From: an uncultured Lachnospiraceae bacterium
GTDB lineage: Bacteria > Bacillota > Clostridia > Lachnospirales > Lachnospiraceae
DNA length: 64,000 bases
Assembly: GCA_910579325.1 (NCBI GenBank)
Contig: CAJTTU010000002.1
Span: 32,106-96,105, forward strand
Direction: 5' to 3'
This document shows positions 2,163-32,378 of the stretch, in pieces. The notes below the pieces were generated by a model. The model was given only the letters and a program-made list of their open reading frames with translations, searched no databases and was not told the DNA's origin. Position 1 is the first letter of the stretch, and each line of letters opens with the position of its first letter. A program made the position numbers and the translations under genes.

Positions 2163-4055
2163 TTACAATAATAAAGAAATACCATGGACCAGAGCACATA
2201 ACGCAAAGCCGCATATGGTGGGAATCAGGATGCCAAGGAGCGTCCATTTCCAGCTTCCGGTTTCTTTGCGCATGGTAAGGCAGGTGGTGGAGCAGGGCCA
2301 GTGCATCAGGGAAAAGAGAATGGTGCACAGGGCCGTGACCCAGGTCCAGCCGTTTGCCGTGAAGATTTGCTGCAGCCGGGTATAATCGTCGATGCTTACC
2401 AGTGTTCCGGTGGACAGATAACACATCAGAATAATGGGCACAACGATCTCATTTGCCGGAAAGCCCAGAATAAAGGCTGTCAGAATCACGCCGTCCATGC
2501 CCATAAACCGACCCAGCGGATCCAGGAAAGTGGTTCCCCATTGGAGCAGGGACTGCTCTCCGGCGTATGTGTTCGCCAGAATCCAGATCAGAAGGCCGGC
2601 AGGCGCGGCGATGGCGACGGCCCTGCCCAGCACGAAAAGCGTACGGTCCAGTATGGAGCGGACCAGAATCTTTCCGATCTGCGGACGTCGGTAAGGCGGC
2701 AGTTCCAGCGTGAAGGAGGAGGGCATGCCTTTCAGAATCGTTCTGGACAAAATCCAGGAGACGCCAAAGGTCAAAAGGATGCCCAGACAGATCAGCAGGG
2801 CCAGCAACAGCGCTCCCGATAGGGAGGAGGCCGCGGCGGAACCGGTGAAGAAAATAGTGATCAGAGCCAGCAGCGTGGGAAAGCGCCCGTTGCAGGGCAT
2901 AAAGCTGTTGGTCAGGACAGCGATCAGCCGTTCTCTGGGGGAATCGATGATCCTGCATCCGGTCACGCCTACGGCGTTGCAGCCGAGGCCCATACACATG
3001 GTCAACGCCTGTTTCCCGCAGGCGGAACATTTTTTAAACAGATAATCCAGATTAAAAGCCACTCTGGGCAGGTAGCCCAGATCTTCGAGGATCGTAAAAA
3101 GAGGAAAGAAAATAGCCATCGGAGGCAGCATAACGGACACCACCCAGGCCAGCACCCGGTAAATGCCCAGGATCAGCGCCTCCCGGAGAAAAACGGGCAT
3201 TCCGGCAGCGACAGCGGTGTCCATCAGAATATCCTGAAGCCAGAAGAAAAAGCGGGACAAAAGCTGGCTGGGATAGTTGGAGCCGGTGATCGTCAGCCAG
3301 AAGATTCCCATCAGAAGCAGAAACATCATAAGGATGCCGGTTCGGGGGCCGGTGACCAGCCGGTCGATCCGGTAGTTGAAACGGCGCTTATCGCCGGGGT
3401 TCTGAGATACGGCCTGGGCTGTGATTTCTTCGGCTTCCCGGATAAAGGAGACGGCAAGGTGTTCGTCCTGGAGCGGAGGGAGAATGTTGTTGTCGTCAGA
3501 TACGGTAATTGTCGTTTTAGCGGCAGCTTTTTTATCTGTTACCGGTAACTGTGGGGGCGTCTCGCACATCCGGACAGCCGTCGCCGCCAGTTCTTTGATT
3601 CCCTTTTTCACGGACGCGCTGCAGGGAACGACAGGCATCCTGAGCAGATCGGACAGTAGAGTAAAATCAATTTCAATTCCTTTCCGCCGCGCTTCGTCGC
3701 ACAGATTGACACACAGAATTCCCCGGTCGGTTATCTGCCGGATCTGCAGCACCAGATTCAGGTTCCGTTCCAGGCAGGTGGCGTCGCAGACGACGATCAC
3801 GGCATCCGGATGTTCTTCACAGATAAAGTCCCTGGCGATCTCCTCCTCGGCGGAATGGGCCATAAGGGAGTAGGTGCCGGGCAGATCCACCAGCGTGTAA
3901 GTCTTTCCGTTCCGGATAAATTCACCTTTCGCACAGGCCACCGTCTTTCCCGGCCAGTTGCCGGTGTGCTGCCGCAGCCCGGTCAGCTCGTTAAATACCG
4001 TGCTCTTTCCCACATTGGGATTGCCCGCCAGCGCGATCACTGGTTTATGGTTCAT
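2163..4055 (-). CDS. feoB: Ferrous iron transport protein B
   Basis: MNHKPVIALAGNPNVGKSTVFNELTG is the G-domain P-loop, followed by a long polytopic membrane domain. Start chosen at the ATG at 4055, 6-8 nt after GGGAGGT. No feoA is seen nearby. Confidence 0.9.
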   Translation of the reverse strand: MNHKPVIALAGNPNVGKSTVFNELTGLRQHTGNWPGKTVACAKGEFIRNGKTYTLVDLPGTYSLMAHSAEEEIARDFICEEHPDAVIVVCDATCLERNLNLVLQIRQITDRGILCVNLCDEARRKGIEIDFTLLSDLLRMPVVPCSASVKKGIKELAATAVRMCETPPQLPVTDKKAAAKTTITVSDDNNILPPLQDEHLAVSFIREAEEITAQAVSQNPGDKRRFNYRIDRLVTGPRTGILMMFLLLMGIFWLTITGSNYPSQLLSRFFFWLQDILMDTAVAAGMPVFLREALILGIYRVLAWVVSVMLPPMAIFFPLFTILEDLGYLPRVAFNLDYLFKKCSACGKQALTMCMGLGCNAVGVTGCRIIDSPRERLIAVLTNSFMPCNGRFPTLLALITIFFTGSAAASSLSGALLLALLICLGILLTFGVSWILSRTILKGMPSSFTLELPPYRRPQIGKILVRSILDRTLFVLGRAVAIAAPAGLLIWILANTYAGEQSLLQWGTTFLDPLGRFMGMDGVILTAFILGFPANEIVVPIILMCYLSTGTLVSIDDYTRLQQIFTANGWTWVTALCTILFSLMHWPCSTTCLTMRKETGSWKWTLLGILIPTICGFALCALVHGISLLL

Positions 4056-4257: not shown

Positions 4258-4803
4258 CTATTTCAGAAGCTCGGAGATATTAATGAGCAGATCCTGGTAG
4301 ATTCCTGCCTGAATCGGAAGGTCAAAAGGCACAATAATCGGAGCGGAATCTTCCTCATACCAGTATACGGTCGTACGTTCCTTCGCGGGATCCACAATCC
4401 AGTATTCCCGGACGCCGGATTCGGAATAAATTGCGTTTTTAATAGAATAATCCATCTTACGGCTGCTGGGAGATACCAACTCAATGATGAAATCCGGAGC
4501 GCCTTCACAGCCTCTGTCAGTGAGCTTGTCAGGATCGCAGATCACGCTGATATCCGGATCCACCCAGTTTTGATCATTGGCATCAAGATTAACGGCAAAA
4601 GGGGCAGGGATAATTTCGCAATTTCAGTCATGTTCTTTGATGTGCCGACCGATTATTTGTGTAAATTCAGAAATTAATTTCTGATGCCTGAAATTCGGCG
4701 GCGACATATCATATAAATGTCCGTTAATAAGCTCGGCTCTCTGTCCCTCAGGCAGGTTCCAGTAGTCTTCTGATTTATAAGATTTTCTTTTTGGTAATGG
4801 CAT
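4258..4803 (-). pseudogene. Uma2-family (DUF820) endonuclease gene interrupted by one in-frame TGA
   Basis: The frame reads MPLPKRKSYKSEDYWNLPEGQRAELINGHLYDMSPPNFRHQKLISEFTQIIGRHIKEHD-TGA(4624-4626)-NCEIIPAPFAV...PDFIIELVSPSS...EYWIVDP with no frame change. Confidence 0.75.
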
Positions 4804-4888: not shown

Positions 4889-5140
4889 TTAATATTGATG
4901 ATATATTTCTCCTCTGTTTCCGGCATCTATGACAAATACAATACATTTTCCACTGTCAACAGTATAAATGATACGATAATTTCCTACTCGAAGCCGAAAC
5001 AGGTCGTTATGTCCTTTTAGCTTCTTTATATCTTCGCCATCAGGTAAACGCATAATAGCCGATACGACTCTGATTCTTTCGTTTTGCGGAAGCTTATCAA
5101 TAAATTTTTTGGCCTTTTTCTTGACGATGATTTGATACAT
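4889..5140 (-). CDS. RelE/ParE-family type II toxin
   Basis: MYQIIVKKKAKKFIDKLP...LKGHNDLFRLRVGNYRIIYTVD...IVFVIDAGNRGEIY. The start ATG overlaps the upstream stop as ATGA. Confidence 0.8.
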   Translation of the reverse strand: MYQIIVKKKAKKFIDKLPQNERIRVVSAIMRLPDGEDIKKLKGHNDLFRLRVGNYRIIYTVDSGKCIVFVIDAGNRGEIYHQY

Positions 5141-5355
5141 CAGCCAATCCCCCACTCTTTCATACATTCTTCTAATGTATAAGATTGGTCTTTTTCGGGG
5201 TCAGGGTCATTTTCATAGTTTTCAACCATTCTCTGGCAAAAGATATCATCAGCTTCTTCATCAGCGGTGATTCCCTGGACATACGCAAGGACATATCCCA
5301 TCTTATAGTCTGGAATGTTATCCAGTAAACTTATAATTCTTTCCTTATTACTCAT
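5140..5355 (-). CDS. Putative cognate antitoxin (71 aa)
   Basis: Small acidic ORF directly upstream of the toxin and translationally coupled to it. AAGGAG lies 8 nt before the ATG at 5355. Confidence 0.6.
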   Translation of the reverse strand: MSNKERIISLLDNIPDYKMGYVLAYVQGITADEEADDIFCQRMVENYENDPDPEKDQSYTLEECMKEWGIG

Positions 5356-5603
5356 AGCCAATTCTCCTTGCAGGTAAAGCTTTTTTGTACATGTGAATTT
5401 TCGTTGTTTGGTTTATGAGAAGTATATCATAAAATGCAAGTATGAACAATGCGCAATAGAGGCAAAAAATGTGAAAAATACAAACAAATGTTCGAAAGTG
5501 GTAAAATTTTGGAAGATGAAGAGAGGGTGAAAAATGAGGACAGTTAATTTGAAAAACCGTATTAGAAATGGCATCAAATCAAATACGGCTTATATGCAAA
5601 ACC

Positions 5604-5630
5604 TTCGTAGAATATTTCATTCTGCGAAAA
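5604..5630. repeat. Left copy of a 27-bp perfect inverted repeat (ttcgtagaatatttcattctgcgaaaa)
   Basis: Exact reverse complement of 6023-6049. It is itself an imperfect palindrome with a 10-bp stem and 5-nt loop. Confidence 0.95.
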
Positions 5631-6022
5631 TATTTTATCCAAAAGACATCATGCCAATTATATAGAATGTCTGAATCACTGTCAACCATTTTAAAAGATT
5701 TCAGAATTCGGTTCCAAATATTTAATAAAAGGTGTCAGAACCAAAAGGAATATCGGCTGTTAAATGCCTTTCTTACCTCTTATATCGGCAGTTTTCCCGA
5801 ATCCCTTAACCCGTTAGAAACAGTTTTTCCCTGAAAAAGATTTATTCGTCGTCAAAATCACCGTCAGAAGACTCTTTACTGCTGTCCCGTTGTCCGCCAA
5901 ACGAAGCAAAAGACCTATATTTTCCTGAAGTATTTGCGGACATATTCGTTTTCTGTCCATTTACCGTCAAAAAAGTGGTCAGACGCTCCCAAAAGTCCCG
6001 AAAAATCAGCTATATCGGGCCT

Positions 6023-6049
6023 TTTTCGCAGAATGAAATATTCTACGAA
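6023..6049. repeat. Right copy of the 27-bp inverted repeat, 58 nt upstream of the TnpB-like ORF
   Basis: ttttcgcagaatgaaatattctacgaa is the exact reverse complement of 5604-5630. Confidence 0.95.
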
Positions 6050-6106
6050 AATCGGTCCGGCCGAAAACAGAAAGGCCGGGCGTAGCCTGTTTAAGGGAAG
6101 ATAGGG

Positions 6107-7417
6107 ATGCCGCCGCAAACGATATTTAAAACGGTTTACCAATACAACAAGATTCCGGTCCCCTCCGGGGATATGACAAAGCTGCAGGAAATCGCAGGCG
6201 ATTGCCGCAGTGTCAGGAATTACGTGTATGAGCGTTACGGCGGAATCGGCGGTCTTTCAAAAATCTATCCGGGTTACGCCGTGCAGAACGAGATGACCCG
6301 AAGCGGATTACGGGAGCGGCTGGGATTGCCCTCCGTTTACTTCTATCTTTCCATTTTCGATGCGCTGGAAGATATCAGGAGCCAGTGGACACACACAAAA
6401 AGTCGGATCGAGCAGAATATCAGGGCAAACCATGAGCTGACGCCGAAAGACAGACATTACCTGCGTTTTGTGATGAAACAGAGAAGTTGTTTTGAAGCGA
6501 TTCTGACAGGCGGCAGGATGGAACTGTCCGGGGATTGGGAAAAGTCTTATGAGGCTCTCGGTGAAAAAGTCAATGTTCACAGGCTGAATCAATACCTCCG
6601 GCGGCAGGTGCGCAGGCATCTGCGAAAACCCCATACGGAAACGGCGGATGGATTTCCGGTTTCCGCGAAAGCGTACCGGTATGCGGATCACGGCATTTAC
6701 GTCGCAATGAAGGAGAAGCGGAAAAGGCTTTTTATCCTGCTGACAGATAATAACCGTTACGACAGGCAGATATATATCCGGCTTTATCCGAAAGATGGGA
6801 ATATCACCATCAATGTGCCGATCGAGGTAAGACAGAGAAAGCCTGCCGGCTATGACGGAGAGATCGGGCTTGCGATCGGAATGCGCCGCATGTTTGTGAC
6901 GGACAGAGGCAGCGTCTACGGGGAACGATATCTGGAATATCAGTCAGCCCTTACGGATTACGTACAAAAAAAGCTGCCGGGCCACCGCAGAAACGCAGAG
7001 AACAATCCCGGAACGAAAAAGTATGACGCAGGGAAAGCAAGACTGGAAGCTGCGCTGCGCACTTACGTAAATGCGGAAATCAACCGGATGCTGGAGACAG
7101 AAAAGCCGGGAACTGTATATTTTCCGAAATTGCCAGGCGTATCGAAGGCCGGGATAAATAAAAAGGTGAATACCGCTGTCAGCATGTGGCAGAAAGGCTA
7201 TGTAAAAAGCAGGCTGGCACAGAAGTGTAAAGAGCGCTCAGTGGAATTTGTCGAAGTGTTCGGAAAAGGGATCAGCGTCACGTGCAGTTACTGTGGAGCG
7301 GCGGGTAAAAAAGACGGAGAGATTTTCCGTTGTAACTCCTGCGGACTGGAAATGCCGGAGAAGCAGAATACGGCGGGGAATGTGATGAGAAAAGGACAGG
7401 AGCTGAAACGTTCATAA
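6107..7417 (+). CDS. TnpB-like (IS605 OrfB-type) protein with apparently substituted RuvC catalytic residues
   Basis: 436 aa with a C-terminal zinc ribbon CSYCG...CNSCG followed by NTAGNV (compare NAAxNI). A central GLAIG sits where GIDLG is expected and VYFPKL where hhhEDL is expected. No tnpA is adjacent. Confidence 0.7.
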   Translation: MPPQTIFKTVYQYNKIPVPSGDMTKLQEIAGDCRSVRNYVYERYGGIGGLSKIYPGYAVQNEMTRSGLRERLGLPSVYFYLSIFDALEDIRSQWTHTKSRIEQNIRANHELTPKDRHYLRFVMKQRSCFEAILTGGRMELSGDWEKSYEALGEKVNVHRLNQYLRRQVRRHLRKPHTETADGFPVSAKAYRYADHGIYVAMKEKRKRLFILLTDNNRYDRQIYIRLYPKDGNITINVPIEVRQRKPAGYDGEIGLAIGMRRMFVTDRGSVYGERYLEYQSALTDYVQKKLPGHRRNAENNPGTKKYDAGKARLEAALRTYVNAEINRMLETEKPGTVYFPKLPGVSKAGINKKVNTAVSMWQKGYVKSRLAQKCKERSVEFVEVFGKGISVTCSYCGAAGKKDGEIFRCNSCGLEMPEKQNTAGNVMRKGQELKRS

Positions 7418-7419
7418 TA

Positions 7420-7720
7420 GAAGGAACCATGGATGAATGCGCCGTCAGGCTGTATTTAACCGAAACCGGGGACGGGAAAAGGACTGTGGGGAATTCTTTT
7501 GATAAATCCGAAAAAATTTGTCACAGACACGTTTTGCCGGATGCGATATAAAAACAAGACGGCATTAGAAGCCGCTTTCGATTGAAGGTGGGTATTGGAT
7601 ATGCCAGGACCTGTGGGAACTCCGGGCGGGAAACCGTGTGGGAGAGGTACCGGGAGCGAAGCGGACAGGGACCAGATGTGCGGGAAATTACGCACAGAGG
7701 AACTGTAAGCAGCATCTGTA
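7420..7720 (+). ncRNA. Candidate structured non-coding RNA in the 3' tail of the TnpB-like gene (omega-RNA-like?)
   Basis: 300 nt with no credible ORF and GC-richer than the surrounding intergenic DNA. It has internal direct repeats (7466-7492 and 7622-7645) and nested hairpins: CAGATG 7673-7678 with CATCTG 7713-7718, and gtgcg 7678-7682 with cgcac 7691-7695. Confidence 0.3.
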
Positions 7721-7778
7721 ATTGATGTCCAAATATGTTTTATTAAATATGACACGGATAAAAGGAGGAACATCAGAG

Positions 7779-8300
7779 ATGGAAGAAATAGAGAAAACGG
7801 GAGAAAAGAAATCGAAGAAAAAAGTAATTATCATAGTGGTGATTGTGGCGCTGCTGGTGGTAATTGGGGCTTTGGGGTTTGTGATTTTTAATCTGTTAAA
7901 TAAAGAAGAACCCAAACCGCAGAGGGATGTCTCCCAGGGCCTTGTGGTGGATGGTGGTATGGAACAAAAGGCTAAAGATGCCAGGTTTACTACAGATATG
8001 AATATGATCTGGACATTCCCGTCAGGGAGCGTTACTTCCAACAATGCAATAATCGGGAATTCCGCCAGTAACCTTTATGAGTGTTATTTTGAGGTTTATC
8101 TGGATGATGAGGAGCAGACACTGCTTTACAGTTCACCGGTGATCCCGGTGGGGAAGAGGCTGGAGGAATTAAAGCTTGATAAAAGCTTACCTGATGGTAC
8201 TTATGATGCCATGTGTACCTACCATGTGCTGGATGATGAGGATCCTGAAAAAGAATTGGGATCAGTTTCCTTTGCGGTCAGTCTGGTGTTTGGCCAATGA
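7779..8300 (+). CDS. Membrane-anchored hypothetical protein (N-terminal TM helix, extracellular beta-rich domain)
   Basis: ATG at 7779 lies 8 nt after AAAGGAGGA. KKSKKK is followed by VIIIVVIVALLVVIGALGFVIF. Confidence 0.6.
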   Translation: MEEIEKTGEKKSKKKVIIIVVIVALLVVIGALGFVIFNLLNKEEPKPQRDVSQGLVVDGGMEQKAKDARFTTDMNMIWTFPSGSVTSNNAIIGNSASNLYECYFEVYLDDEEQTLLYSSPVIPVGKRLEELKLDKSLPDGTYDAMCTYHVLDDEDPEKELGSVSFAVSLVFGQ

Positions 8301-8419
8301 TTGATACATGATTCCCGGGGCAGGATGGGGACGGGAGTGAGGCAGAGCTTCTGGTACCGGATGCCACGGGGAATGTATATAGATTCAAATTCAAATTTTA
8401 TTAAATGGAGGAATGAAGT

Positions 8420-9541
8420 ATGAAGTTTAATGCTAAGAGAGCGGCAGCCTTTGCCATGGCAGCCTCGATGTGTCTTTCAGTTCCGGCTTTTGCGGCAGAA
8501 AACAGTGATAAGACAGCCGGCGATTTTACGACAAGCTTTGATATCTATTCACCTACGCTGACGGTCAGTGTGCCGCTCAATTTGGATGTTGAGGTGAATC
8601 CTTTTGCAGATAGCAGTGTTACTACACTGCAATACTACAGCGTAGCTTCTCAGAGCATGGATATTTGGAATGCTTCTACGGATACCAAGAAGGATATCGG
8701 TATTCCGGTAAATGTGGAGGTACAGGCCAGCATTGCGTCAAATGCTGAGGGTGTGGTGACGGAATATGGTACTTTCCAAGAAGATTCTAAATCCACAAAG
8801 AAGAGAATTCATCTGGATCTGGCAAGTCCGACAGCGCCGACAGTAGCACTGGTTACTGGTCAGACCCCTGCATGGAAAGACCCTGCTGCTACGGATAAAA
8901 AGCTGGATCTGAAAGTGGAAAATTATACATTAACTGCGATGGATTATAAAGCTGCTTCTAATAAAACGGCTATTACAAAGTTTGGCTCCTTGCTTTCTGT
9001 AGATATTGCGGCACCTACGACAAGTGCAACAGAAACGTCAACTGGTTCTAAAGATAAATTTTCTAAAGATCCCGAAAAAATTCTTCCTACCGTAGGTTCT
9101 TTTGCTGTAGTTGGTACAGCTAACAGCCATGCGGATTGGAAAGATACTGACGTGGCTGTGAATGTTAGCTATAAGATCACTGCAAGCAACCCGCTGGCGA
9201 TTACGACTCCTGGCGTAGACGGCGGTGCAGTGACAGTTGCGGCCGATACTGATGCCACAATTGTTATAAAAGACGTGGGCGAGGCTACCGTAGAAGCCAT
9301 TGCGGTTCATAATGACAAAGAAGGCGGATATGGGGATTATATTTGGGATGCTGACAGATATACTGTTACGTATGCCGAGGATAACAGTACTCCTGCCAAA
9401 ACAGATGCAACAATCACGATTTCCAAAGATGGAGAAGGCGGCCTTGCTTACCTTGCCTCTGCTTATAAAGGTGAAGCTCAAGATCTTTGCATCAAATTGT
9501 CTGATGGACGTATGGTTGTTAGTACACTGACTCAGAATTAA
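8420..9541 (+). CDS. Secreted surface or cell-wall-associated protein of unknown family
   Basis: Signal peptide MKFNAKRAAAFAMAASMCLSVPAFA|AE. The mature part is Thr/Ser/Ala/Val-rich. RBS is GGAGGA. Confidence 0.65.
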   Translation: MKFNAKRAAAFAMAASMCLSVPAFAAENSDKTAGDFTTSFDIYSPTLTVSVPLNLDVEVNPFADSSVTTLQYYSVASQSMDIWNASTDTKKDIGIPVNVEVQASIASNAEGVVTEYGTFQEDSKSTKKRIHLDLASPTAPTVALVTGQTPAWKDPAATDKKLDLKVENYTLTAMDYKAASNKTAITKFGSLLSVDIAAPTTSATETSTGSKDKFSKDPEKILPTVGSFAVVGTANSHADWKDTDVAVNVSYKITASNPLAITTPGVDGGAVTVAADTDATIVIKDVGEATVEAIAVHNDKEGGYGDYIWDADRYTVTYAEDNSTPAKTDATITISKDGEGGLAYLASAYKGEAQDLCIKLSDGRMVVSTLTQN

Positions 9542-31121: not shown

Positions 31122-32378
31122 ATGAAAAAGCGAATGAAACAATGGATAGCATGTTTACTGGTTCTGTCTCTGACAGCGGTGGCGCTGGCAGGCTGCTCGG
31201 GAAACGGAGGCGGTAAGGAGACCCAGGCGCCGGTGCAGACGAAGGGGACGGAGGCGGCAACCGGGGCCGCGAATGAAACGGCGGATGTGGAAGCGACAAC
31301 GGCGGGAACCGAGGCAGGATCGGAAGCAGCGGCGAATGGCCAGGAGGGCCAGATCGTGGTGACAGACCATGCCGGGCGTCAGGTAACTCTGCCGGCGGAG
31401 ATCAACCGGGTAGTGGTTGCGGATATTTACCCGATGGCGTCGGTGATCACCGTATACTTAGGCTCTGCCGAGAAGCTGGTGGGAATTCATCCCGTATGTA
31501 TGAGCGCGGCGAAAAGCGGTCTTCTGGGAGAAATCTTCCCTGAGATTCTGGAAGCGGACACCAGTTTTATGACGGGCAGCGACCTGAATGTGGAACAGCT
31601 TCTGAATCTGGACCCTGACGTGGTATTCTGCGGCGCGGGCAATTCCGAGCTGATGAGCGCCCTGGAGAATGCCGGAATCCCGGCGGTGGGCGTTTCTCCC
31701 AGCAAATGGCAATATGACATTCTGGAAACCTATGATCAGTGGGCAGCTCTGCTTGGCCAGATGTTCCCGGAGAGCGACAAGAGTAAAGAAATTTCCGCTT
31801 ACAGTCAGGAAGTATATGACATGATTCAGGACAGGGTAAAGGACATCCCGGAGGAAGATAAAAGGGATATTCTGTTCCTGTTCCAGTATGACGATCAGGA
31901 AATCGTGACTTCGGGTAAAAGCTTTTTCGGCCAGTTCTGGTGCGAGGCCGTAGGCGGCAGAAATGTGGCGGAGGTAGTCGAAGCCGATAATTCCAATGCG
32001 ATTATCAGTATGGAACAGATCTATGAGTGGGACCCGGAACTGATTTTCGTGACGAATTTCACCTCGGTTCAGCCCGATGACCTTTACAAGAATGCCATTG
32101 GCGGCGACGATTGGAGTACGGTTACGGCCGTAAAAGATAAGGAAGTATATAAACTGCCCCTGGGCAGCTACAGAAGCTATACGCCCAGTGCGGATACGCC
32201 CGTAACCCTGCTCTGGATGGCCCAGAAGGTGTATCCTGATCTGTTTTCCGATATCGATATGACCCAGGAGGTAAAAGACTACTATCAGGAGCTTTATGGG
32301 ATTCAGCTGACTGACGAGCAGGTAGAGCGGATGTACAATCCTTCGACGGAAGGCTCGGGAAATACAAATCATATTTGA
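31122..32378 (+). CDS. ABC importer substrate-binding lipoprotein, FecB/BtuF (iron-chelate / corrinoid) class
   Basis: Lipobox LAGC|SG and a T/A/E-rich linker. The core (VVVADIYPMASVI..., DPDVVFC, WDPELIFV) is typical of periplasmic-binding-protein family 2. Confidence 0.8.
   Translation: MKKRMKQWIACLLVLSLTAVALAGCSGNGGGKETQAPVQTKGTEAATGAANETADVEATTAGTEAGSEAAANGQEGQIVVTDHAGRQVTLPAEINRVVVADIYPMASVITVYLGSAEKLVGIHPVCMSAAKSGLLGEIFPEILEADTSFMTGSDLNVEQLLNLDPDVVFCGAGNSELMSALENAGIPAVGVSPSKWQYDILETYDQWAALLGQMFPESDKSKEISAYSQEVYDMIQDRVKDIPEEDKRDILFLFQYDDQEIVTSGKSFFGQFWCEAVGGRNVAEVVEADNSNAIISMEQIYEWDPELIFVTNFTSVQPDDLYKNAIGGDDWSTVTAVKDKEVYKLPLGSYRSYTPSADTPVTLLWMAQKVYPDLFSDIDMTQEVKDYYQELYGIQLTDEQVERMYNPSTEGSGNTNHI

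Follow-up and report, generated by a model that had tools for sequence, protein, structure and literature searches.

The 64,000-nucleotide (nt) stretch analysed here, referred to below as the window, covers positions 32,106 to 96,105 of the forward strand of contig CAJTTU010000002.1 from an uncultured Lachnospiraceae bacterium (assembly GCA_910579325.1). It contains an invertible promoter segment, a gene for a TnpB-like protein, a structured RNA immediately 3′ of that gene and the beginning of a surface-protein operon (Table 1). There is little doubt that positions 7410–7744 encode a selected, structured RNA which is the partner scaffold of the dead TnpB encoded at 6107–7417 and has its origin in an omega-type guide RNA. 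Nuclease-dead TnpB relatives with guide RNAs (TldRs) have recently been recognised as natural RNA-guided transcription factors, the roles of most of their clades being unknown.

A sequence-only reading of this DNA had proposed an omega-RNA-like scaffold followed by a guide at 7420–7720. Every string which it quoted was found where it had been placed, no credible open reading frame (ORF) crosses 7418–7778 and the region is, as had been claimed, richer in G+C than intergenic DNA (0.45–0.52 for 7400–7700 versus 0.31–0.33 for 5300–5800). The presence of a scaffold 3′ of a TnpB-like gene was borne out. The element is larger than proposed, running from 7410, where it overlaps the stop codon, to 7744 and being followed by a variable 3′ segment, and the suggested guide start of 7719 was wrong, with about 7745 being indicated instead. 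That this variable segment acts as a guide is something that we infer.

When 7380–7780 was folded as RNA, a free energy of −119.5 kcal/mol was obtained (z = −5.2 against dinucleotide shuffles), with none of 100 shuffles folding as well. A covariance model, R1, was built from eight tails, and related loci were collected from reference genomes (6) and metagenomes (80). Searching 69 sequences, namely the window and 68 related loci, with R1 gave one match per sequence in all 69, on the + strand and just 3′ of the TnpB-like gene, with scores of 21–240 bits (209 bits in the window). Matches were obtained even at loci whose TnpB-like proteins are only about 50% identical. Of the cells in the R1 alignment 93.6% are paired, and compensatory changes on both sides are seen in 35 of the 52 base pairs; double-change cells numbered 453, compared to 30–87 in slid controls, and none of 500 shuffles reached the observed values, a large margin even though figures from an alignment fitted to the model lean somewhat towards structure. 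A scan of 5000–9000 against Rfam, on both strands and with E up to 5, gave nothing credible, the one match listed being a chance miRNA (E = 3.3). The sequence-only reading had named a lack of conservation beside TnpB-like orthologues and an Rfam assignment to a known riboswitch or leader as outcomes that would speak against it; given the 69/69 linkage, with the element beside every homologue examined, and the Rfam result, neither was observed.

R1 detected two RNAs for two genes in the genome of the window (the window copy and that of a paralogue on contig C141) and two in Acetatifactor muris, each behind an ORF with a TNB domain. The RNA is also carried by a distant cassette from another bacterial family of the same order (27.9 bits). 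Between the window and C141 copies, tail blocks are 87–92% identical versus 71% for the whole gene-plus-tail stretch, excepting a 43-nt insert that neither the C141 paralogue nor any other locus has. The scaffold evidently tolerates this insert. The repeat from which it derives, ATCCG(A/G)CAAAA...TTTTGCCGGAT, has at least 10 similar copies on other contigs of the same genome, G000 (C127, C4, C89, C78, C48, C128, C178, C21, C79, and C119).

Table 1. Position and strand of the features of the switch, the TnpB-like gene, the RNA and the first downstream gene in the window.
Feature	Position	Strand	Remarks
Left lox-like site	5604–5630		Half-sites TTCGTAGAA / TTCTGCGAA around a 7-nt spacer; left edge of conserved cassette
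Invertible promoter	5657–5685	-	TTGACA-17-TATAAT; 12/12 consensus; 26 nt from left end of segment
Right lox-like site	6023–6049		Inverted relative to left site
TnpB-like protein	6107–7417	+	436 amino acids; presumed RNA partner; RuvC triad lost
Core RNA scaffold (R1)	7410–7668	+	Covariance model; overlaps stop codon 7415–7417
R1 helices, 5′ part	7410–7413/7654–7657; 7419–7421/7495–7497; 7427–7431/7485–7489; 7435–7443/7448–7457	+	
R1 helices, continued	7460–7461/7481–7482; 7466–7467/7475–7476; 7561–7563/7571–7573; 7574–7579/7584–7589	+	
R1 helices, 3′ part	7590–7598/7604–7612; 7614–7616/7650–7652; 7620–7623/7641–7644; 7627–7629/7634–7636	+	
43-nt insert in A-rich linker of scaffold	7507–7550	+	Only in window copy; copy of a dispersed palindromic repeat
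Hairpin A	7661–7710	+	Closed by GCGGACAG/CTGTAAGC; 34-nt expansion holds inner hairpin 7678–7695
Hairpin B	7711–7729	+	GCATC 7712–7716 pairs with GATGT 7724–7728; family CATCATC...GATGAC
Near-invariant single-stranded 3′ tail of scaffold	7730–7744	+	CAAATATGTTTTATT; family consensus C(A/C)AATRTRCCTTATT
Putative guide	7745–7765	+	AAATATGACACGGATAAAAGG; variable DNA directly 3′ of junction; length assumed
Membrane protein, first gene of surface module	7779–8300	+	173 amino acids; co-transcription with RNA probable

The two related units which had been taken for an internal repeat are not conserved as a repeat in the family and proved to belong to different helices. The first (7466–7492) consists of helix P5 and one strand of P3, while the second (7622–7645) is hairpin P10/P11, the sequence of which varies freely with compensatory changes and which is missing at locus L012. 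Their likeness is due to both being CCGG...GGGAAA hairpins, and a repeat search without gaps did not match one to the other. For the P6 loop (AUUGG) and the tail (CCAAU) a pseudoknot was considered and rejected, as the two are complementary yet lack covariation.

Beyond the end of the R1 model (GGGAGCGAAGC, at 7662), comparison of 63 distinct loci resolved the sequence into two hairpins, A and B, and a near-invariant tail. Compensatory changes preserve the closing stem of hairpin A (51 sequences show 32 distinct combinations); the family closes it with GC...GC, and its loop ranges from a GNRA tetraloop in a distant clade to 73 nt. Hairpin B was found with 29 distinct stem combinations, a mean of 5.35 of 6 pairs being kept, and with loops of 3–65 nt. 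Of the nested structure proposed from the sequence alone, the inner hairpin GTGCG/CGCAC stood, since in L028, the closest relative, it is altered in a compensatory way to GTGTG/CACAC. The outer pairing of CAGATG (7673–7678) with CATCTG (7713–7718) did not, as it is not conserved in the family and CATC at 7713–7716 lies in the terminal hairpin, which is kept with compensatory changes.

Information content across the 63 loci peaks in the tail motif and, after a few A/T-rich positions, reaches zero 4–5 nt later. Published junctions of TldR guide RNAs and of IStron omega RNAs were placed by reference to the conserved scaffold 3′ end (10.1101/2023.11.30.569447; 10.1101/2023.11.20.567912), and by the same reasoning the scaffold/guide junction is put here at about 7744, so that any guide would start at 7745. 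In the window, the putative guide overlaps the ribosome-binding site of the 7779 gene. A guide at 7669–7730, as a comparison of two copies had suggested, is ruled out by the two conserved hairpins with variable loops seen in the 63 loci. The tail was also considered as a sigma-70 promoter or intrinsic terminator, which neither hexamer spacing nor a promoter/terminator scan supported; the likely operon promoter that the sequence-only reading had placed in this region was likewise not recovered, no + strand sigma-70-like promoter being predicted there. The tail motif recurs about 750 nt downstream, but these second copies have no bearing on the RNA, being part of the coding sequence (...YIPYF...) of a conserved gene there.

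It should also be noted that the 3′ tail motif appears to be a hot spot for rearrangement. At locus L054 a 24-nt copy of the RNA end lies on both sides (3198–3222 and 4641–4664) of an inserted gene for a 448-amino-acid protein with no Pfam match. Related loci carry a similar first gene, and the first downstream gene of L011 encodes a glycerophosphotransferase. In genome G082 the junction of one of the paralogues is followed by an insert of 57 nt that lies between ATAT(A/T)(T/C)CTTATT repeats (L103 4655–4725 versus L102).

The presumed partner of this RNA showed, in Pfam, only the Cas12f1-like TNB zinc ribbon (PF07282, 3e-7), and its match to the NCBIfam model guided_TnpB (3e-12) was below cutoff. 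A profile of 26 family members matches Fanzor2, TnpB and Cas12f chains in the PDB, while Foldseek with an AlphaFold model of the protein returned only TnpB, Cas12f, Fanzor and Cas12 structures. The family is large, with more than 1,100 members at E ≤ 0.001. At the RuvC motifs the window protein has GLAIG for GxDxG, YFPKLP for the Glu strand and PEKQNTAGN for DxNAAxN, and the family has GLAxG, YxPKLP and (K/R)xNxAxN (aligned also as (K/R)QNTAxN). Across the 26 aligned sequences the triad substitutions (A256, P340, and R419) show little or no variation, and they hold in the representative set. Loss of at least two RuvC catalytic residues, a trait of the TnpB homologues that partner TldR guide RNAs, is therefore seen across the clade. 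An exhaustive profile search separated a close clade without the triad from more distant full-length relatives that keep GIDKG / ExL / DADxNA, which makes the protein a nuclease-dead offshoot of an active TnpB lineage.

Upstream of the gene, the two lox-like sites form a perfect 27-nt inverted repeat which is built like the core sites of tyrosine recombinases. Apart from one further site on C141, nothing else in the genome matches the site pattern well. The promoter between the window sites faces away from the TnpB-like gene, and the switch is thus OFF in this assembly. Equivalent site pairs precede the gene in most related loci, and in the relatives the segment has a single outward consensus promoter 20–27 nt from one end, which is directed towards the gene in 9 assemblies and away from it in 24. 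L037 (ON) and L038 (OFF) represent one and the same locus in the two orientations of the segment. One of the two A. muris loci was assembled in the ON orientation. The sites lie about 1.4 kb apart in long-form switches, which carry a tyrosine recombinase, and 300–400 nt apart in short-form switches, which have no recombinase gene; sites of a second type are separated by about 100 nt. The recombinase gene, which is present on C141 and in the long-form relatives, occurs on either strand relative to the TnpB-like gene. The traits of an inverton were therefore all found: core sites bracketing a promoter, a cognate tyrosine recombinase, and both orientations in nature.

The conserved cassette extends from the left site to the tail motif; its flanks are unrelated, with no conservation left of 5604, and neither transposon ends nor a transposase/TnpA are present at the locus. 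The left site (5604–5628) together with a T-rich run scores as an intrinsic-terminator-like hairpin on the + strand, which might insulate the cassette from upstream transcription. At locus L107 (G435:C42), from another family of the order, the layout of site, tyrosine recombinase, site, dead TnpB and RNA is kept, and the module is therefore either older than the Lachnospiraceae or was transferred.

A scan of 6050–7779 predicted no + strand promoter or intrinsic terminator, and for this reason the RNA and the 7779 operon probably both depend on the ON state, with the invertible promoter ahead of the TnpB-like gene being the most likely driver of the operon. Downstream genes have surface or glycan functions that differ between loci, whereas the RNA stays with the TnpB-like gene. 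Across loci the first ORF begins anywhere from 20 to >800 nt past the junction, a range which rules out a constrained spacing such as occlusion of a ribosome-binding site would call for. A 37%-identical paralogue of the 7779–8300 product is encoded downstream of the C141 copy (G000 C141:2254–2703), where it follows the module's second copy, and the genome is therefore equipped with two surface modules that are alternative and switchable. The family is sporadic, being found in 6 of the 151 Lachnospiraceae genera sampled.

The best reading of these data is that the RNA is probably an omega-RNA-derived guide RNA of a TldR-like protein, the pair forming a switchable RNA-guided regulator made only in the ON phase. 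Flipping of the lox-like switch (5604–6049) would turn the consensus promoter towards the TnpB-like gene, and in the ON state a single transcript would span that gene, the RNA and the surface-protein operon. The TnpB-like protein would then bind the scaffold, and the approximately 20 nt past the invariant tail (from 7745) would serve as the guide, taking the complex to complementary DNA, where, like a TldR, it could serve as a roadblock or regulator that does not cut. By analogy with the TldRs, binding of DNA by the protein–RNA complex through the post-junction segment is considered reasonably likely.

The comparison is made with TldR guide RNAs rather than with a homing omega RNA since the protein is nuclease-dead and lies outside any transposon. 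Like the TldRs associated with fliC, oppF and csrA (10.1101/2023.11.30.569447; 10.64898/2026.09.22.753285), the present module has a TnpB-derived protein that has lost the RuvC triad, with a conserved structured RNA just downstream on the same strand, whose strongly conserved scaffold 3′ end is followed by a variable segment; it has no transposon ends and it lies beside host genes for surface structures. It differs in being the first unit behind a tyrosine-recombinase invertible promoter that heads glycan/surface-protein operons in the Lachnospiraceae, in its much longer scaffold (about 270–335 nt) and in its putative guides, which are not conserved between relatives and for which no promoter target was found. 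Its gene context differs from that of all three clades (fliC, oppF and csrA). With the omega RNA or reRNA of canonical TnpB (IS200/IS605, IS607, and IStron TnpB; 10.1101/2023.11.20.567912) it shares its position relative to the gene, its strand, and a covarying multi-stem scaffold with a sharp conserved end before a variable segment from flanking DNA, which is a putative guide here. However, there is no transposon (no left or right end, no TnpA), only one or two copies occur per genome, and a partner without the RuvC D-E-D triad cannot cut, so that homing is impossible.

A further parallel is dCas12f–sigmaE of the Bacteroidetes (Nature 2026, PMC13472631), in which a nuclease-dead miniature Cas12/TnpB-type protein with a single guide RNA controls genes and some of the guides are directed in cis at their own locus. 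In contrast to that system, no sigma factor gene is linked to the module, the protein lineage and the RNA are different, and targets such as the known 13–14-bp ones upstream of susCD operons (PMC13472631) were not found.

Several results weigh against the TldR-like reading, the first of which concerns the target. The search for guide matches that the sequence-only reading had suggested was run with post-junction segments. In the genome of the window, the tail and post-scaffold segments were searched using blastn-short and as 16-mers, at most 2 mismatches being allowed; for A. muris, G082, G090 and G016, the search was made with 20-mers and up to 3 mismatches. For the 20-nt segments of eight loci, each searched in its own genome (five genomes in all), only self matches and matches at chance level were obtained and no convincing target, in a search which could not assess guides of 9–12 nt. 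The only perfect complement found for a guide was its own cassette/operon junction. No cross-targeting between the window and C141 copies was found, and among about 60 loci no cis target recurred at any position within 3–4 kb, switch and flanks included. In addition, putative guides differ freely among close relatives, unlike the conserved guides of fliC-associated TldRs. Only the C-terminal half of the protein is well modelled by AlphaFold, the N-terminal half being poor (pLDDT, the predicted local distance difference test score, is below 50 for residues 135–244), which precludes judging whether its DNA-binding parts are intact. Lastly, with one or two copies per genome, a model of mutual exclusion among many loci is weakened.

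An exception among the searches was an 18/20 match of the second A. muris guide (L114 2994–3013; G001:C73:110893–110912). It lies on the coding strand of a gene for an AraC-type response regulator, between a histidine kinase gene and a pectinesterase-like gene, with TTATT 2 nt upstream. As one such match in eight guides is roughly what chance would give, this only candidate for a trans target may be a chance match. Six loci of the distant clade (L071, L074, L086, L089, L096, and L106) have AAA(A)TCAG or CTAATCAG 4–12 nt past the junction, with differing sequences downstream, which could be a short semi-conserved guide or could reflect common ancestry of the leaders.

With the target search negative and the guides unconstrained, three options are left: short guides acting in trans, binding at the junction of the module itself, and a function of the RNA as RNA only. 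If DNA is bound, a target in trans with short complementarity and the own locus at the cassette/operon junction are considered roughly equally probable. The second of these is attractive because the guide always matches the DNA from which it was copied. The guide would then be whatever DNA follows the cassette, and its sole guaranteed complement the template strand of its own locus. As a whole this self-addressed arrangement is thought possible rather than likely. Under it, the invariant tail (...CCTTATT) would double as the adjacent motif in the DNA, the complex of dead TnpB and RNA would load in cis at the boundary between switch-cassette and operon, and a portable regulator without a specific guide sequence would result, acting as a read-through brake, an insulator or a place of transcription restart. 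Such a regulator would still work wherever the cassette recombines ahead of a new surface operon, and would represent the use of an RNA-guided protein without an evolved target.

The option in which the RNA acts only as RNA is the main rival, which we regard as tenable but doubtful. The scaffold would here offer the protein a binding platform within the operon leader, and dead TnpB, once bound, would alter what becomes of the transcript (its processing, stability, read-through or translation) with neither DNA targeting nor a guide involved. It would account for the eight guides with no DNA target, for the unconstrained post-junction segment and for the constant position of the RNA between invertible promoter and operon, an interval for which the window gave no promoter or terminator prediction. 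A precedent is also available, since TnpB represses IStron splicing by binding its own omega RNA (10.1101/2023.11.20.567912). However, a first ORF at anything from 20 to >800 nt makes a fixed translational or processing geometry unlikely, the sharp end of the scaffold is typical of guide RNAs, and the characterised nuclease-dead relatives of TnpB and Cas12 all bind DNA (TldR and dCas12f–sigmaE papers).

Since the link between the dead-TnpB/RNA module and a recombinase-bearing invertible segment is constant, across two site types and several bacterial families, a role of the RNA in guiding or controlling the tyrosine recombinase was also weighed. By analogy with Cas12k in CRISPR-associated transposons, the complex could mark or lock the switch or direct recombination. 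A 13-nt match in the window between 7738–7750 and 5718–5730, inside the switch, would suit this idea, but it has no counterpart in about 60 other loci, guide regions do not match the recombination sites, and short-form switches without a recombinase gene still keep the protein and the RNA. This role is therefore improbable. The two weakest alternatives are effectively excluded: that the tail is the decaying omega RNA of a transposon without present function, as the nuclease-dead protein and missing transposon ends and transposase might suggest, is very hard to credit with strong covariation, a tail better conserved than the coding region between paralogues, and retention beside proteins only about 50% identical and in another bacterial family; and a known riboswitch or leader of the surface operon, which the highly structured position directly upstream would allow, has next to no credibility given the absence of any Rfam family even at E up to 5 and downstream genes that vary by locus while the RNA follows the TnpB-like gene.

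Promoter invertons of surface loci are well known from the capsule loci of Bacteroides, with UpxY/UpxZ lead genes, from fimS of E. coli and from the RecV switches of C. difficile. As in those systems, a tyrosine recombinase flips a promoter between inverted sites and the first product of the surface operon is regulatory, but here that first product is an RNA–protein pair derived from a transposon nuclease instead of a NusG-like factor or inhibitor. Full-text literature searches gave, within the library covered, nothing that links TnpB-type proteins with invertons. A large protein family thus keeps a long, strongly covarying partner RNA, and in gut Lachnospiraceae the pair is the first unit behind a DNA flip-switch of surface-glycan/surface-protein operons. 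Should the RNA guide DNA binding, surface phase variation would be tied to a second layer of regulation that is programmed by RNA; a self-addressed guide, or an RNA with a function purely as RNA, would instead amount to a novel use of a TnpB scaffold. The exact boundaries, junction and helices of the RNA, together with the cultured Acetatifactor muris DSM 23669, which has two copies in its genome, make the question directly testable.

The RuvC-intact relatives of the protein are encoded by stand-alone genes in Clostridium, Romboutsia and Oceanirhabdus. Neither R1 nor nhmmer detected sequence homology between their tails and the window RNA. The idea that they are IStrons found no support in Rfam, which at the gathering threshold gave no match, and no group I intron, in their loci. 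They do have a conserved 5′ element of about 230 nt, GGATGGTGATATAGTCTGTGC...AACAACCGTATTTTAAAA (L110 2565–2800; L111 2660–2900; L109 40–270), which might be either an intron-like RNA or the end of a transposon, and a conserved 3′ tail of about 330 nt in an analogous position (L110 4400–4780), which ends at TTTTTAGAACCAGNAGAG as sharply as the window RNA does.

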